Source of the DNA: Catajapyx aquilonaris
Lineage: Eukaryota
DNA: 20,000 nt
Direction: 5' to 3'
Assembly: GCA_000934665.2 (NCBI GenBank)
Contig: KZ538445.1
Coordinates: forward strand, 49,713-69,712
The translations under genes and the position numbers were made by a program. This document shows, piece by piece, positions 1,282 to 20,000 of the stretch (positions within the stretch are counted from its first letter, which is position 1; every line of letters starts with the position of its first letter). The notes beneath the pieces are model-generated. The model ran no database searches. It was given only the letters and a program-made list of their open reading frames with translations, and was not told where the DNA came from.

Positions 1282-6248
<4,967 letters not shown>

Positions 6249-8283: not shown

Positions 8284-8462
8284 AATATGGCGCTTGTGAC
8301 TTGAACAAATATGGCCTCCACGTGTATGGCAGCGACTAATTTATATCAGGTTACATCATATTTATCATTAACGGTACATACTTTTTACACACTGGTAAGG
8401 AGCCCCATGAATTTAGGCGTGATTTGTGACACCGATGGTGACAAGGGTGATGTCACCACGTG
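8284..8462 (+). promoter_or_regulatory. Putative housekeeping promoter upstream of POLR3K: two CACGTG E-boxes and YY1/Pho-like ATGGC motifs
   Basis: CACGTG at 8319-8324 and 8457-8462. AATATGGCG at 8284-8292 and AAATATGGCC at ~8307-8316. These lie 130-310 bp upstream of the POLR3K ATG. Confidence 0.4.
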
Positions 8463-8591
8463 ATTAGATCATCACTGCACCCTCATCATTTGGTGGTCCT
8501 CCTGCTGCACCGTTGCGATTCGGACCTCCTGGCAGTGGACAGTGTCCGCCGCATTGTCTTAATCCCTGCCCGTGGGGGCGAGAGTGTGGTG

Positions 8592-8988
8592 ATGCTCCTG
8601 TTCTGCCCTACCTGCGCCAACATCCTCGGGGTGGAGGAAGGGGCCCACCGAGGGCAGAGCTGCCTCCGATTCGCCTGCAACACGTGTCCGTACGTCCACA
8701 ACGTCACACACAAGATCAGCAGCAGGGTCTATCCCAAGCTCAAGGTATGCAACTGGGCACACATTCGCCCTCTTGCCTTTCGAGTAACACATGCTTTTGC
8801 AGGAGGTGGACGACGTGCTGGGTGGCTCGGCCGCCTGGGAGAACGTGGACTCCACCACGGAGACCTGCCCCAAGTGCAGCCACCACCGTGCCTACTTCAT
8901 GCAGATACAGACCCGATCCGCTGACGAGCCCATGACCACCTTCTACAAGTGCTGCAGTCCTCAGTGCGGACACCGCTGGAGGGACTAA
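8592..8988 (+). CDS. POLR3K: DNA-directed RNA polymerase III subunit RPC10/RPC11 (TFIIS-like zinc ribbons), 112 aa
   Basis: Exons 8592-8744 and 8803-8988, with a 58-nt intron GTATGC...TTTGCAG in phase 0. Product MLLFCPTC...RFACNTCPY...YPKLKEVDDVLGGSAAWENVDST..CPKC....AYFMQIQTRSADEPMTTFYKCC....CGHRWRD closely matches the eukaryotic C11 sequence. Confidence 0.97.
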
Positions 8989-8999
8989 TAGACAGCACC

Positions 9000-9019
9000 T
9001 GTGTGTGTGTGTGTGTGTG
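9000..9019 (+). repeat. (TG)10 microsatellite in the POLR3K-YRDC spacer
   Basis: TGTGTGTGTGTGTGTGTGTG directly visible. Confidence 0.9.
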
Positions 9020-9051
9020 GACGGGTGGTCTTTTGAACAGACTGTTTTTCG

Positions 9052-9741
9052 ATGAATAAACTGGCAGCACTGATGACTGATGTGCTGCGGCTTGTCCCAC
9101 CAAATGGTGTGACTGCTGGTAACTTGGAGGCTCTGGCCAGGCGCGCTGCAGAGGCCCTGCTGAAAGGACACGTCATAGCTATTCCCACTGATACTGTGTA
9201 TGGTATTGCGGCCTTGGCACAAGACACTGGTGCAGTGCAAAGCCTGTACGACATAAAAGGCCGCAACGGAAAGAAGCCAGTTGCGATCTGCGTTGGTAGC
9301 ATCCCAGAAGTAGGCCGTTGGGGCACTGTTAACGTCCCAAATCAGGTCTTGCATGAGCTTTTGCCAGGACCTGTGACCCTTGTATTCAAACGCACTCCAG
9401 AACTCAATCCCGGCTTGAATCCAGACACTGATCTGGTTGGTATTCGCATTCCGGACCACGAGTTTGTGCATCGTGTTGCAGTCCTCTGTGGCAGCCCTCT
9501 TGCCCTCACCAGTGCCAATCCAAGTGCATCGCAAAGTACTCTGAGTGCAGACGAGTTTAAGGAACTGTGGCCCAAGTTGAGGTGTGTATTTGATGGGGGA
9601 AGACTAGGGGATGCACGGGAGGGGTCTACAGTGGTAGACCTGTCCACCCCAGGAACTTACAGAGTCATACGAGACGGGAGTGCACTTGGACCTACCAAGT
9701 GTGTGCTGGACATATACCTACGCTGTGAGAATAACATGTAA
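9052..9741 (+). CDS. YRDC: Threonylcarbamoyl-AMP synthase (YrdC/Sua5/TsaC; tRNA t6A biosynthesis), 229 aa, intronless
   Basis: YrdC motifs IAIPTDTVYGI, YDIKGRNGKKP, LLPGPVTLV, VGIRIP, PLALTSAN, GSTVVDL in a single uninterrupted ORF. Confidence 0.95.
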   Translation: MNKLAALMTDVLRLVPPNGVTAGNLEALARRAAEALLKGHVIAIPTDTVYGIAALAQDTGAVQSLYDIKGRNGKKPVAICVGSIPEVGRWGTVNVPNQVLHELLPGPVTLVFKRTPELNPGLNPDTDLVGIRIPDHEFVHRVAVLCGSPLALTSANPSASQSTLSADEFKELWPKLRCVFDGGRLGDAREGSTVVDLSTPGTYRVIRDGSALGPTKCVLDIYLRCENNM

Positions 9742-9747
9742 CAGGAG

Positions 9748-9813
9748 GTGAGTGTCACAATCCATGCCCCACGGCAGGTGATCTAAAGATATAAATTTCC
9801 AAGCCCCATACAG
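9748..9813 (+). other. Putative 66-nt intron in the YRDC-PLEKHM1 spacer
   Basis: Consensus donor GAG|GTGAGT at 9748, branch-like CTAAA at 9783-9787, acceptor CATACAG| at 9813. The length matches the window's short introns. Confidence 0.65.
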
Positions 9814-9818
9814 GGATC

Positions 9819-12569
9819 ATGGCGCTTCGTAGTCGAGCATCAAGCCGTGAGGCTGCTGTCAAGGCCTCGCTGACTGCCAACCTGATCGAGTACATCAAGG
9901 AGGTTCAGCTGAAGCATGCCAACCTCGGAGGAAAACTCACAACGGAGGAGGAGACGAACGAGCTGTGCACAGTGCTGGAGGCCATCTTCGTCCATGGCCT
10001 CAAGGACACACTCATGAAACGTGTTTCTTCAGCCCTGGGTGGGGACCATCCTGACAGGCGCATGCCAGAACCCGACTTCTGGAGCCCTCTCATGGTGTTC
10101 TCACACAAGGATGTCATGGAGCAAATTGCATGTTACACTAGAATTGTTACTGACATTGGACGTTGCAGGGCATGGCTTCGTTTAGCATTAAACGAAGGGT
10201 TGATGAGTAGTTACTTGGCAGCAATGCATAAAGATAAGTCGACCCTGAAGGATTATTACTCGAAGCATGCGTACTTGCGAGACTCTGAACATTTTGATAT
10301 CATGCGGACGTATTTAGTGGGAGTTGAGGAGTACGAGTTTCAACTCGCCTGCAATTCAAGTGTGTTGAATTCTTGGACAAGCTCGCCACTTGCTCTGGCA
10401 GGACTGTGGATTCCGCCAATGGCAAGGCCTGCTGCTGTGGTGCAGGGTGTGGATGCAATTGAGGTCCTAGGTGAGGAGGTGCCTGCCTTTCCAAGTTTCG
10501 TGAGGCCAGAGCCCATGCCGTATGTCGCTAGAACACCAGTTCTCAATGAAGACGAGGCCTTGAGGGTGATTCTGGCCCCACGGCAGGAAGAGGAGGAGGA
10601 TCCAGAGCCAGCAGCCATGAAAGGAGCTAGGAGGAAGGTGCGGCGCCGGAAAATAGTGCTAAAGGAACCACCTGATGATGTCAATGTTCCTAAGCCAGAA
10701 ACTGTAGCCAAAACTGTAGAAGAATTGCCTAAGCTTGTAGTGGATGACGTTGCGCTTAAAAGCAATACAGAATCAGAACTGGAAGGTGACCCAGAGCCAA
10801 AGCTCGAAGAAACTAAACCGACTGACATAACCTCATCAAATGGGGTTGTGTCAGATGGCACAGATGTATCTCCAAATGAGCCCAAGGATGAGTCGGAAGA
10901 ATCAGGTGTGGGAAATTCTCTTGGAGGTCGCCTGGGATGGTCGTCGTCTTTTGAAGAAGACCAAGAGGAATGTTCGGAGCTCTCAACGTCTACTATTTCG
11001 AGGCAGTCTTCCGAACCTGAGAGCTTCCAGAGCCTGCTACAAAACTATAGCCCACTAACAAAGCCCATTCCCAGGTCAGCCAATCCAGATTTTGAGGTCG
11101 TGTGTCCGGCAGCCAACGACACTCCTGCGGCCCACTCGAAGGAGGAGGAGGAGGAAATTATCAGGGTGTGTATTTGGGCCAAGTTGAAGGTGACAATCTA
11201 ATTTTCAGTCACAGTTGCCATTCCATGCAACTTGATGGGTTGTCAACTTTCCAGATATCAGTAGTTAAAAGCTCATGCTGAGACACCTTTCCTAACGAAT
11301 TTTCTCTCCCGGGTTTCTCTCCTGTTTTTTTCTCTCTGCCTTGCGAAGAGTCCGACAAGCCCCGGATCAGACTTTGAGATCATCCGTCATGCACACCTGG
11401 TCAGTATAGTCTGAGCGTCACTGGGCACCTCTCGGATTGCATGCGTATATCTTGTGGGTTTGTTAGTTGTAGTTTCTCGGGTGCTTTCGACACACTTTTT
11501 TGTTTCATTTCTGCACAGAAAAGTCCTGTGTTGAGTGACTGCGGATTTACTTACAAATACTTACTGCTTTTTTGTCTCGCTTCATGCTAGTTGTCATCAC
11601 CACAGCACATTTCAACTTATTTTCTACTTCACTGGGGTACTAATGCACTAGTGGTTGTGACAACATTGTGATTGAATGCGTACTCGAATTCTGAACTTTC
11701 CTGCAGGAGTACAACATGTCACAGCTTCGTCGAATCGCCACCGAGCAAGGACTTGACTCGCAGAACTATGAGTGCAAGAGCTGTGGACGACCCATAGGCA
11801 TGATATATGGGAAGCCCCGCGTCTGCTCCTTCAGTGGGCACTATTTCTGTTACGAGTGCCATGAGAATGAGGAGTCGGAGATTCCGGCTCGGATTGTGCA
11901 CAACTGGGACTTCCAGAGGCATCCTGTCTCCCGAGGAGCCTTACGCTTCCTCTCCCAGGTGGAACACGAGCCTCTGCTCAACATCATGGAGATCAACCCA
12001 ATCCTGTACCATGTCATCGAAGAGATGAACGAACTGCAGTCGCTGAGGACGCAGCTCAACTTTCTGCGAGCATACCTGTACACCTGTAGGGAACCAGTCA
12101 TCGAGGAGCTCAGGCACAGGGTGTGGCCCAGGGAATACCTTTGCGAGCATGTGCACCTGTACTCGCTGTCGGTGAGTCCCATTACTTTTGGGGGATCAGT
12201 ATCGACATTAATTTCGTCCCTTTTCCACAGGATTTACTGACCGCACCGACACGTGAACTGGCCCACAAGCTTCAGAAGGTCGTTGCATTTGCACGGTCAC
12301 ATGTGGCCAGCTGCTGCACATGCAATCCCAAGGGCTTCATCTGCGAAGTCTGCGACAACCCACAAATTATCTACCCTTTTGATTTGAGCACCACATATCG
12401 GGTATGTGCAGCAACCTCGATTGTGATGCTGATTAGTGACCTAACCGCTTCCATTTTCCAGTGCCCCACCTGCTGTGCCGTGTTCCACAGGAATTGCCTG
12501 GATTCGGCCAAGCCTTGCCCCAAGTGCGAGAGGCGGAAGAAGCGCCAGGACCCACTGGAGCTGCCGTAA
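9819..12569 (+). CDS. PLEKHM1: RUN domain + Rubicon-homology (zinc-binding RH) domain protein, PLEKHM1-like Rab7/lysosome adaptor, ~696 aa (713 aa with cassette exon)
   Basis: Exons 9819-11165, [11349-11399], 11707-12171, 12231-12401, 12462-12569, all junctions phase 0. RUN motifs LCTVLEAIFVHGLK, FW, GRCRAWLRLALNE, YSKHAYLRD. RH motifs GLDSQNYECKSC, YFCYECH, IPARIVHNWDF, HVASCCTCNPKGFICEVC, IIYPF, CCAVFHRNC, CPKCER. No PH domain recognised. Confidence 0.85.
11349..11399 (+). CDS. Putative 51-nt symmetric cassette exon of the PLEKHM1-like gene (SPTSPGSDFEIIRHAHL)
   Basis: Preceded by a long pyrimidine tract and AAG acceptor (11348) and followed by a GTCAGT donor (11400). Phase 0/0 with no stop codon. 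Confidence 0.7.
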
Positions 12570-12999
12570 TCCTCGCTTCCAAAACTGTCTGCGATACAGA
12601 AAGCATAATAAGTCAAGACCACTGTGATGCCTATATTTCCCTATAAATGTTGTACACCACCCGCGTTGAAGATGTGCCTATGCTGCGTTGGCTTCCTTGC
12701 GAGCATTGATATAATTATGTTTCAGGGGGATTTGAAATCATGTTGGGGGTTTTGCTATTTTATTCAGTCAATTTAAATACATGCAAATTTTTGTAAAACT
12801 GATTCAAAATGCAAATTTCAGGACCAAATCATGCGATGTAACACGATTGTGCATAATAAATTTTTTTGAAGTGTTGCACATTTTTTGGCCTTTTTTTTTT
12901 AGGGGGGCGGGGTTGATTTGGGCGCCATCTGTCGGATGGTTGTGATTGGCTGTGCATCTGGCCACACTGCTTCTGGTGGCGCCAAAGGTGCCTCTAGTG

Positions 13000-13452
13000 C
13001 AGTGTTACCAGATGTACCATAATTATGGTATTCATACCATAATTTCGGGTTCCGTACCATGTACCATAATGGTACGCAAAAAGTACCATTATTTTGTCAA
13101 GTCCAATGTTACTCTGCAATTCCACTTCCATGAAAAGCGTGATACCAATTTAACCACATATACACCTATTCAAATCTCCCAGTAGGTTACATTCACCAAA
13201 ACTTGTGTGACCTTGAACCAAAAGAAAATTTTCGCCTGCGGCGCGCTTTTCCCTCCCCGCCAGTACTTTACTACTTTCCCCGGTTTCGACTACTTTATCA
13301 TGGTTAACTTTTTAATTACGGCTATTTAAATTTAAATTGTCTTTAATTAACATTAATTACGCCATTTTTGAAATGTACCATCTTTTCCGGAAAAGTACCA
13401 TTTATTTCGAGGGTTGGTACCATTTACTCGATCTCACGATCTGGCAACTCTG
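13000..13452. mobile_element. Non-autonomous hAT-type MITE (453 bp) immediately upstream of TRIP13/pch2
   Basis: TIRs CAGTGTTACCAGAT (13000-13013) and ATCTGGCAACTCTG (13439-13452), 12/14 match. Exact 8-bp TSD CTCTAGTG at 12992-12999 and 13453-13460. Multiple subterminal (G)TACCAT repeats at both ends. Confidence 0.9.
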
Positions 13453-13511: not shown

Positions 13512-15025
13512 ATGCAGACATTGCGGAGAGAGATGGAGACGGATAAGGGTGAGGGGAGCGTGGTGGTGCATGTGGAGGTGAGGCTCAAAACGGCAGGGTT
13601 CAAGGCACAGCTGCAGCCCCACCTGGAGGAGATGGTGTCCCGCCTGGATGGGGTCACTTCAGGTCAGGTGGTGACCCAGTTCGAGGAAGGTCAGCTGAGG
13701 GACAACCTGGAGGAGGTCAGCTTCCACTTTGATGGGGAGGAGGAGGAGGTGCGACCTGCACATTGCCTGGTGGCGTACCACGTGTACAGGCTGGACGACA
13801 GCGGGCCTGAGCTGGAGGAGATGGACGAGGAGGGCGGCTTGGCCGCAGCCACCCACTGGGTCCTGCCCTCCAAGGAGCTCAAGGACCTCTGGAGCACGCT
13901 CATCTACGATACAGATGTCAAGGGAAAGGTAACGATCATGGAGCACCAGTTGGGCTCGGTAACCACAACTTTTGCGTAATCTGCAGCTGATTAGGTATAT
14001 GGAAACCTGCCTGCTGTTTGCAGAGAAGAAGGTGAACCAGGATATTGTGAGCAACAATCAGCTGGTGCTGTTGTATGGACCGCCAGGGACGGGGAAGACC
14101 TCGCTTTGCAAAGCGCTGGCTCAGAAGCTGACCATTCGTCTGGGCCACAAGTATGCATATGGACAGCTGATTGAGATCAACAGCCACAGCCTGTTTTCAA
14201 AGTGGTTCTCAGAGGTAGGATATTGATCGGAATTTAGCATTGTGTTAGCATCCTGTTATGATTGCAATTTTTTAAACCACCAGAGCGGAAAGCTGGTGAT
14301 GAAGATGTTCCAGAAGATCCAGGAGATCATCGATGACCCATCCGCACTGGTTTTTGTCCTGATCGACGAAGTTGAGAGTCTGACCCGCTCAAGACAGGCA
14401 TCTCTGGGCAACAACGAGCCAGCCGATTCAGTCCGTGTGGTCAATGCCCTGCTGACCCAATTAGACCAGATAAAGCGCTACCCAAATGTCCTCCTCCTGA
14501 CCACCTCCAATCTGTCCGACTGCTTGGATGCAGCCTTTGTCGACAGGGCGGACATCAAGCAGTTTATTGGACTCCCATCGCTCGGAGCGGTCTTTGAGAT
14601 ATACAAGTCATGCCTGGAAGAACTCATGGAAAGAGGAGTAGTCCAGCCTAAGGAAAGGCTTTGGAGGCTAGGCCACCTGCAGAAGGTGCAGTTTGAAGAA
14701 AGTGAAGACACCCGCAACAGCCTTGCCTTGCTGCAGATCGCAGAGTAAGACAGCTTGGCATTCTTCCCCTTTTCTCTATTACCTCTCCTTCTACTGTGTG
14801 CTTGGTTTTACTATTCAGGTGCACAGTAATGCTGTGAAATTAAATGCTAATGCCAACTATCTTTCCAGACTCAGTGTTGGCCAAAGTGCGAGGTTGCTGC
14901 GCAAAATTCCGTTCTTGGCTCACGCCAACCACGTCTCCTGCTCCACGGACACGTCGCTTCTCTTCTTTCTCAAGGCAGTTGAGAAGGTGGTGCGGGCACC
15001 AAGGGAAGACAATGCCAGCATGTGA
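13512..15025 (+). CDS. TRIP13: Pachytene checkpoint protein 2 / TRIP13 AAA+ ATPase, ~420 aa
   Basis: Exons 13512(or 13533)-13928, 13987-14214, 14284-14744, 14869-15025 (1263 nt). Motifs [21 protein letters not shown], Walker [38 protein letters not shown], Walker [45 protein letters not shown]. Confidence 0.96.
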
Positions 15026-16477: not shown

Positions 16478-18953
<2,476 letters not shown>

Positions 18954-20000
18954 CCCTAAAGGTCAGAGCATGTGGCCAACCTGTGATCAACTGCCACAGT
19001 TGCCAAGCATCCCTCTCCCTCCCCCCTCTCCCCTTTCCCTGGCATGCCGATATATTTCATAAGAGTGGCGAAATATCCTTGTTCTTACGCTCTCCTGATA
19101 CTCCTCTTGCTAATGAGTCCTGGTGGAGGGATGGGCAATGTGGAGTCGCCTTCCTTCTGCCTGAGGCTCCAACCCTGTGGCACTGCCAGGCACAGCAGCA
19201 AGCAGCCTACTCTTCAGCGTCCGCTCTCCTCCTTATTTTTCCCGGAAGCCATTGCTTTAGATCATGACTCACTCACGCCTCCTTTTTCCAACCGTAACCA
19301 GTCCATAATTACATGAAAAGAGGTCTGGCTGGCCGCCTGCATGGCGGGCATTTTGCATCCCCCGCCAACTCCGATAGCTGCTACTTTGGGGAAGCTGCGA
19401 TTCAGCGATAGCGGTCAACTGACTTTTCAATTGAATTTATCCGCCACACTGTTTCTTCCAGAGTTCGCCCCGGTATGGCGCTCAAAAAGGAAAATAATTG
19501 TACGCCAAAATCCTGGACGCTTTCGTCGCGAATGTGCACCGGTTGGGCGGGAAAATCCTGTGCGGTCCCGAAAATACGCACCGGTCGGGCCCGAAAAATG
19601 TTGCACGGGAAAAAGCTGTACGACAGGAAGAACTAATCCATCGTCTAGCGCCGGCCTTGCTCCCGCGCTGTTGCCAGATTGTGCGGGGATGTGGCGGGGG
19701 TGGCCGGGTTGGGGGGGNCCACGGTAGCCGCCATATTGGCTCCCCATGGGGGACGGACTTCGCTGCTATTGATAATCACCCGTTACCGGGCAATAACAGC
19801 TCCGAGAATCGCGGTAGCGCTCCCGACGACTCCTTAGTCCTTAGACGTCGTCGCTGGCAGGCAGCGCGACGGAGGGCAGGCTCGACAGTAGCACAAGTGG
19901 CCGGCCGGGATCCATTAGGGGCTAGGAGCCCATGCGGAATGCCTTTATCCGATAATTCGGCGATATGTCGTTTGCGTTTTGGACATGAGAGCGCTAGGGG

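Follow-up and report, generated by a model that had tools for sequence, protein, structure and literature searches.

A head-to-tail POLR3K-YRDC-Plekhm1 cluster in Catajapyx aquilonaris, a probable pancrustacean arrangement with a proposed shared or deeply overlapping transcription

Introduction

The closest described counterpart of the locus reported here is the Drosophila gene pair CG33785/CG33786, which is named among the dicistronic pairs of Misra et al. in PMC2276209. This source describes a conserved upstream open reading frame (ORF) of 108 codons, labelled 'transcription', ahead of a main ORF labelled 'translation', with conservation reaching out to an expressed sequence tag from Bombyx. 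FlyBase (File S1 of PMC4528330) lists CG33785 and CG33786 as one locus of the class 'all di/polycistronic', in which the coding sequences overlap by 1 nt, and CG33786 is given as Tcs2 in PMC5372737. From the 108-codon 'transcription' ORF and from CG33786 being Tcs2, we infer that CG33785 is the POLR3K member of the fly pair. Here we analyze a stretch of 20,000 nt from Catajapyx aquilonaris (contig KZ538445.1, positions 49,713 to 69,712 of the forward strand; in the following called the window), in which POLR3K and YRDC are closely followed on the same strand by a third, Plekhm1-type gene. A first-pass annotation of the window, made from the letters alone, had named the fly pair, and the pair is real.

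Arthropod messenger RNAs (mRNAs) with more than two ORFs are also on record. FlyBase counts 159 dicistronic, 7 tricistronic and 2 tetracistronic loci, and the tricistronic moth mRNA uENF1-uENF2-PP is translated by context-dependent leaky scanning. Hence, dicistronic expression of the first pair in flies and tricistronic arthropod mRNAs were already known, whereas the attachment of Plekhm1, an intron within an intercistronic spacer and a three-gene order that is conserved widely, though in patches, are new. Among the matches listed in literature searches (in one case the first 15 of 557), no paper linked YRDC and Plekhm1 as neighbors; the 3 that mention both are human gene-list studies. Of 14 matches for YRDC, POLR3K and 'bicistronic', the 12 listed include none with all of these terms.

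Arrangement and transcription of the cluster

The three unrelated genes, each with an intact and conserved ORF, lie head to tail on the + strand: POLR3K at 8592-8988, YRDC at 9052-9741 and the Plekhm1-type gene, with a RUN and a Rubicon-homology (RH) domain, at 9819-12569. The spacers measure exactly 63 nt (8989-9051) and 77 nt (9742-9818), as the first-pass annotation had given them; the remaining intergenic gaps in the window are ~0.9-2.3 kb. Judged by these wider gaps and by the recurrence of the same order and strand on a metagenome contig (L009, see below), the tight arrangement exceeds chance. The locus shares the layout of polycistronic ones, with ORFs on the same strand, head to tail, without room for a promoter or terminator between them; its second spacer is transcribed and spliced.

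Transcription was assessed from the contigs of the only public run listed with the locus (X1), which have a word depth of 4-6. We treated this run as RNA because its contigs skip GT..AG introns. Nine of the 12 matching contigs are at least 99% alike to the window, so the run was taken to come from the same organism. The features of the cluster, all on the + strand, are as follows.

8446..8591, +, POLR3K 5' leader; its extent is the reach of RNA contig record 1 (8446-8745)
8450, +, ATG of a short upstream ORF of 5 codons in the POLR3K leader, from the ATG census
8592..8744, +, POLR3K (RPC10/RPC11) coding exon 1, 51 codons; Pfam Zn_ribbon_RPB9 (6.1e-06) and RNA contig
8745..8802, +, POLR3K intron, 58 nt, GT..AG; from splice sites and frame, with no RNA joint among the contigs
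8803..8988, +, POLR3K coding exon 2, stop TAA; Pfam Zn_ribbon_TFIIS (7.2e-21)
8989..9051, +, spacer 1, 63 nt, with (TG)10 at 9000-9019; from the sequence
9055..9060, +, AATAAA overlapping YRDC codons 2-3, 3 nt past spacer 1; hexamer scan
9052..9741, +, YRDC (threonylcarbamoyl-AMP synthase, Tcs2/Sua5 family), single exon, 229 aa; Pfam PF01300 (2.7e-41) and RNA contig 9267-9747
9742..9818, +, spacer 2, 77 nt, from the YRDC stop to the Plekhm1 ATG; from the sequence
9748..9803, +, spacer 2 intron, 56 nt, GT..AG, donor GAG/GTGAGT (cut at the slash); RNA joint 9745->9802, cut +2
9790..9795, +, TATAAA within the spacer 2 intron; hexamer scan
9819..11165, +, Plekhm1-type exon 1, 449 codons, with the RUN domain and a low-complexity linker ending in an FEVV motif; Pfam RUN (2.2e-25) and RNA contigs
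11349..11399, +, Plekhm1-type cassette exon, 17 codons, with an FEII motif resembling an LC3-interacting region (LIR); inclusion joints 11164->11348 and 11398->11706, skipping joint 11164->11706
11707..12171, +, Plekhm1-type exon with the first part of the RH domain; Pfam RH_dom (2.8e-37), Rubicon RH domain 6wcw (4.6e-24) and RNA contig
12231..12401, +, Plekhm1-type exon with the middle part of the RH domain; Pfam RH_dom (3.1e-15), joint 12170->12230
12462..12569, +, Plekhm1-type last coding exon, stop TAA; Pfam RH_dom (0.002), joint 12400->12461
12570..12880, +, Plekhm1-type 3' untranslated region; AATAAA at 12855-12860, RNA contig reaching 12835

The link between the second and the third gene is given by one contig of 655 nt (record 2; word depth 5.6), which covers 9267-9745 and 9802-9977 without a mismatch. 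Its joint is GT..AG, was found in this 1 contig, has 176 letters on the shorter side and contains 0 other letters. RNA therefore runs without interruption from at least 475 nt before the YRDC stop, through the stop codon and into the Plekhm1 ORF. It follows that spacer 2 is transcribed through and does not contain the promoter of the third gene, and that the Plekhm1 mRNA sampled here was initiated upstream of this spacer. The spliced intron is wholly intercistronic, with its donor 6 nt past the YRDC stop and its end 15 nt before the Plekhm1 ATG, and its removal shortens the distance between stop and start from 77 to 21 nt. An unspliced form of spacer 2 was not among the listed contigs of run X1.

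Neither spacer contains AATAAA, in line with the first-pass annotation, and the hexamer scan found no ATTAAA in them either. That annotation had placed the first clear AATAAA at ~12855-12860. The hexamer is indeed present there, after the third gene, but the AATAAA at 9055, the TATAAA at 9790, an AATAGA at 8987 and the (TG)10 repeat had been overlooked. The AATAAA at 9055-9060 might serve as poly(A) signal of a POLR3K-only mRNA. The sole poly(A)-signal-like hexamer of the YRDC-Plekhm1 spacer, TATAAA, lies inside the spacer intron.

Two further splicing candidates were rejected. The sole GT..AG pair of spacer 1 (9001-9040) spans 40 nt, which we judged too short for an intron. The other was an in-frame fusion of YRDC and Plekhm1 by splicing: a joint from the donor-like GTGAGA at 9725 to the acceptor at 9803 would not keep the frame, and the donor seen in the RNA is that at 9748.

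The first two genes compare closely with CG33785/CG33786. An RPC10/RPC11 ORF lies upstream and YRDC/Tcs2 comes next on the same strand, so that the two families, their order and their orientation agree, and both loci lack room for a promoter in between. In contrast to the fly coding sequences with their 1-nt overlap, those in the window are 63 nt apart and separated by (TG)10, and here a third gene follows that is joined at the RNA level.

Identity of the three genes

The predicted POLR3K product has 112 aa, and its reading frame closes with tandem in-frame stops, TAA TAG. Among solved structures, the best relative of exon 2 is human RPC10 of RNA polymerase III (Pol III; 1.4e-36), compared with 2e-11 for RPB9 and 1.6e-06 for RPA12. 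By its two Pfam ribbons and the RPC10 match at the sequence level, the first gene is assigned as POLR3K, encoding the RPC10/RPC11 subunit of Pol III. RNA contig record 1 stops at 8745 and then continues with 3 letters that do not fit the genome. In the POLR3K leader or promoter region, an E-box CACGTG lies at 8457-8462, flanked by CCACGTGAT, 11 nt from the 5' end of this contig. Sites of this type are bound by Myc or by Mitf/TFEB-type factors and would fit tRNA-synthesis or lysosomal genes.

The YRDC protein contains a full-length Sua5_yciO_yrdC domain, in which profile positions 1-178 of 178 are matched (Pfam, 2.7e-41). It is 55-62% identical to animal YRDC proteins and matches solved threonylcarbamoyl-AMP synthases with e-values down to 3.5e-21. 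The names that the first-pass annotation had given to the first two genes are thus borne out by Pfam domains and solved relatives.

The third gene starts with the ATG at 9819, stops at 12567-12569 and encodes 713 aa in five coding exons. GT..AG joints in the RNA contigs support three of its four introns as well as the skipping of the cassette exon. It has the N-terminal RUN domain and the C-terminal RH domain of PLEKHM1, the latter spread over three exons (Pfam). The two pleckstrin-homology (PH) domains that PLEKHM1 carries between them are not recognizable: no PH family was found by Pfam at E<=0.01 in any exon of the gene, and none was present among the precomputed Pfam domains of 70 of 70 relatives. 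These relatives are arthropod proteins of ~650-770 aa, mostly named Plekhm1, the best being those of a cricket (54%) and a springtail (52%). The RUN domain is nearest to proteins named Plekhm1 or PLEKHM1, with 34-41% identity to fish PLEKHM1, and a protein atlas search returned generic RUN clusters only. We therefore place the third gene in the arthropod Plekhm1 orthologue group, to which fly CG6613 belongs and in which PH domains are not recognizable; this placement is predicted from the sequence. With RUN and RH domains but no PH domain by Pfam, the name PLEKHM1 given in the first pass applies to this gene through orthology naming only. In PMC6176938, CG6613 is described as the PLEKHM1 orthologue and a Rab7 effector.

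Two short motifs of this protein were observed in addition. The cassette exon at 11349-11399, which is both included and skipped in the RNA, has an F-E-I-I core that resembles the LIR pattern and is preceded by acidic and serine residues. Near the end of exon 1 (11080-11100) lies a constitutive F-E-V-V motif, close to the F-E-V-V and F-E-L-L of the cricket and springtail orthologues. The cassette exon may thus provide a second Atg8-binding motif that is toggled by alternative splicing.

Conservation of the cluster in arthropods

The first-pass annotation had suggested that the first pair may be an ancient arrangement. This holds and extends to the third gene, according to two lines of evidence: fused gene models and a metagenome contig.

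Among 31 long YRDC relatives, three are gene models that fuse YRDC with RUN and RH domains, one of 921 aa from an ostracod and two of 888 and 884 aa from beetles. In alignments, each consists of a complete YRDC and, behind it, a complete Plekhm1, a few residues being absent where the two meet. It follows that the two genes are close neighbors on the same strand in the ostracod and in both beetles. The three models (P0121, P0128 and P0145; 884-921 aa) are public annotations, and they are probably mis-joined as a consequence of the tight spacing. Of 2290 YRDC relatives of similar length, 120 were listed, and these include no gene model in which POLR3K is fused with YRDC.

Metagenome contigs were scanned with a RUN-domain alignment, yielding 31 loci, around which POLR3K and YRDC were sought by tblastn. 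Both were found at one of these loci, L009. On one strand of this contig follow a POLR3K exon (744-830), POLR3K exon 2 (2525-2713), the end of YRDC (3447) and the Plekhm1 ATG (3596). For the YRDC start there are two candidates, an ATG 25 nt inside the end of POLR3K and one 5 nt behind it. The spacer between YRDC and Plekhm1 has 148 nt and contains ATTAAA. The contig is cockroach/termite-like: exon 1 of its Plekhm1 shares 83-86% identity with the termite and cockroach proteins.

Five distinct sequences extend 2 kb or more upstream of Plekhm1 (L009, L002/3/5/6, L007, L021 and L024), and the three-gene cluster is kept in one of them, L009. The RUN regions of L002/3/5/6 are identical and fall among ants in the tree described next. 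On the 4.4-kb contig L007, an ORF for a DP transcription factor (44-1483; Pfam DP, 1.3e-55) lies upstream of an intron-free Plekhm1-like ORF (2020-4282), on the same strand and ~0.5 kb away. This pair may be another two-gene RNA, in a marine relative.

The RUN-domain tree comprised 51 rows, with the exclusion of matches spanning <=150 residues of 1-215 and of loci with a stop in the match, including L009. In this tree, the winged insects form a clade whose sister is the protein from the window, a weakly supported position (85/78). If one accepts the ostracod model as it stands, the cluster would be at least as old as Pancrustacea and would have been lost repeatedly.

Models of expression

We favor, with moderate confidence, a conserved pancrustacean POLR3K-YRDC-Plekhm1 cluster that is transcribed as a single unit or as units with deep overlaps. 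In this proposal, transcription would start once, at or before 8446, and would end mainly beyond the AATAAA at 12855, so that di- and tricistronic mRNAs result; shorter forms may be released at the hexamers 9055 and 9790. Because the spacer intron includes the TATAAA at 9790, a transcript could there be either spliced or ended, but not both. Ribosomes might reach YRDC by leaky scanning or by reinitiation after POLR3K, and Plekhm1 by reinitiation 21 nt after the YRDC stop, by internal entry or from a shorter transcript.

The sequence bears on these routes in several ways. The bases at -3/+4 of the start codons are G/C for POLR3K, T/A for YRDC and A/G for Plekhm1, the last being the strongest context. 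From 8446 to the YRDC ATG, the mature leader holds four ATGs, namely those of the 5-codon upstream ORF and of POLR3K itself, and the only two that lie between the POLR3K and YRDC start codons, both of them Met codons in the POLR3K frame. POLR3K thus has 0 out-of-frame ATGs, against a mean of 5.1 expected from the codon usage pooled over the three genes (P=0.003). We rejected this depletion as proof of leaky scanning, as it disappears once the codons of POLR3K alone serve as reference. Ribosomes may still reach YRDC by leaky scanning here, but it is not a conserved design, because the depletion is lost against the gene's own codons and because POLR3K exon 2 of L009 contains nine such ATGs. The abutting or overlapping ORFs in L009 and in the fly suggest reinitiation instead.

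A number of observations weigh against the favored reading. The absence of out-of-frame ATGs in POLR3K is not significant with respect to its own GC-rich codons (mean 1.0, P=0.28), and exon 2 of L009, as said, carries 9. YRDC contains 6 out-of-frame ATGs compared with 6.7 expected; as it is not depleted, scanning ribosomes would be hard put to arrive at the third cistron. With its start at 9267, the bridging contig includes an incomplete YRDC ORF, no RNA with two complete ORFs is among the contigs, and a contig that spans two genes is no proof of one continuous molecule. No contig covers 8746-9266, including the POLR3K-YRDC spacer, a gap that counts neither way given the skipped repeat and the word depth of 4-6. 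The signal-like hexamers at 9055 and 9790 and the ATTAAA in the L009 spacer permit separate 3' ends. Outside the window, the ant contigs (L002/3/5/6), L007, L021 and L024 have no YRDC in the 2-6 kb upstream of Plekhm1, and the polycistronic loci listed by FlyBase (File S1, PMC4528330) do not include CG6613, the Plekhm1 of the fly. Of the first-pass proposal of a polycistronic mRNA or overlapping units, what stands is the RNA that leads from YRDC into Plekhm1 across the spliced 56-nt intron; an RNA across spacer 1 was, like one with two complete ORFs, not among the contigs.

Several of these points would also suit separate genes that overlap, an explanation which we regard as appreciably less probable but serious. 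POLR3K and YRDC would then form a dicistronic (or two-mRNA) unit that ends at ~9800-9830 or beyond, for which the TATAAA at 9790 and the ATTAAA in the L009 spacer could provide the signal. Plekhm1 would start inside the YRDC/POLR3K coding region, with a non-coding first exon ending at the 9747 donor and a 5' untranslated region overlapping YRDC, and no mRNA would contain two complete ORFs. The start of the bridging contig inside YRDC and the stretch without contigs before it agree with this, as does the fact that FlyBase does not join Plekhm1 to the fly pair; moreover, a leader from 9267 would hold just four ATGs, with upstream ORFs of 1-8 codons that a scanning ribosome could pass. However, with a word depth of 4-6, the simplest reading of a contig end is a gap in the assembly, and the exact order is kept in L009, the ostracod and two beetles, for which a shared transcript is the easier explanation, although an embedded promoter would also constrain the order.

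Two other explanations appear far less probable. Some crustacean groups use spliced leaders (SL), and the short intercistronic distances, together with pyrimidine-rich tracts and AG at 9039-9040, 9802-9803 and 9812-9813, would suit an SL operon, in which trans-splicing to acceptors closely preceding the downstream ATGs would resolve a polycistronic precursor into mRNAs of one gene each. The first-pass annotation had pointed to acceptors at 9040 and 9813, but the acceptor in use is 9803, in a cis splice with the 9748 donor. SL-like loose ends were not listed at 9041, 9804 or 9814 in this one run of low-depth contigs, the listed ones being at 13021-13242 only; this argument is weak, since contigs drop rare variants. 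The fly pair is also translated from a dicistronic mRNA as curated, and we consider an SL operon very unlikely. Nor do we give much credence to an artefact, in which the bridging contig would be an assembly chimera or a functionless rare read-through and the tight spacing a by-product of a compact region. It is true that the joint comes from one run and one contig of word depth 5.6, but it is canonical, has 176 matching letters on its shorter side without mismatches and represents the only form of the spacer seen, and the cluster recurs in distant arthropods.

Surroundings of the cluster

Upstream, the nearest neighbor is a protein kinase gene at a distance of ~2.3 kb, which we take to be SRPK-like. 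Downstream follows TRIP13 on the + strand after ~0.9 kb (13512-14750), with its N-terminal, AAA and lid domains. A further protein kinase gene, presumably MAPKAPK-like, is found on the - strand at ~16700-19000. The region 12900-13350 between the Plekhm1-type gene and TRIP13 is AT-rich, with repeated 'taccataat'-like units, and looks like a dispersed repeat; loose RNA contig ends at 13021, 13186, 13206 and 13242 fall into it, and one contig has a 2-nt deletion variant. Two antisense ORFs (8743-9603 and 10343-11044) were dismissed as shadow ORFs, as neither contains a Pfam family. Rfam and tRNA scans of the window gave no match. An N is found near 19.7 kb.

Discussion

In having at least three ORFs per mRNA, with shorter alternative forms being common, the FlyBase tri- and tetracistronic loci and the moth uENF1-uENF2-PP mRNA resemble the arrangement proposed here. 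Their ORFs are mostly small or related, whereas those in the window have 112, 229 and 713 codons, are unrelated and include a middle ORF that is not depleted in ATGs. For the locus in the window, a full-length RNA and its translation would be expected under the favored reading. With the SL operons of nematodes, tunicates and others, the cluster shares unrelated genes that lie head to tail, spacers of roughly <=100 nt and an AG acceptor before the downstream ATGs; it differs in that no leader is seen in the contigs of the one run and in that the acceptor of spacer 2 takes part in a cis splice. Read-through (conjoined) transcripts of neighboring genes are likewise spliced from one gene to the next, but here the intron lies wholly between a stop and the next ATG, and the ORFs remain intact and unfused.

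A bolder version of the proposal, which we hold to be rather improbable, is an ancient pancrustacean tricistronic messenger with the intercistronic intron as a switch. Left unspliced, the messenger would end as a POLR3K-YRDC 'tRNA' mRNA; once spliced, it would bring the ribosome within 21 nt of the Plekhm1 start. How much of a lysosome/autophagy adaptor is made would then depend on how two genes of tRNA biogenesis are transcribed and translated. That tRNA biogenesis and lysosomes are functionally coupled, as already put forward in the first pass, is purely conjectural.

The cluster is spread over the organism of the window, a pancrustacean outside the winged insects by the RUN tree, a cockroach/termite-like insect, two beetles and an ostracod, and it is absent in the examined ant contigs. 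For annotators, it holds a warning: YRDC and Plekhm1 have been merged in three public gene models, and the tight arrangement is the probable cause. If the transcript is shared, the conserved order would give a concrete reason for microsynteny surviving several hundred million years. And should the three ORFs indeed share one mRNA, it would provide a natural example from animals of a 713-codon protein made after two long upstream ORFs, a situation that scanning models handle poorly.

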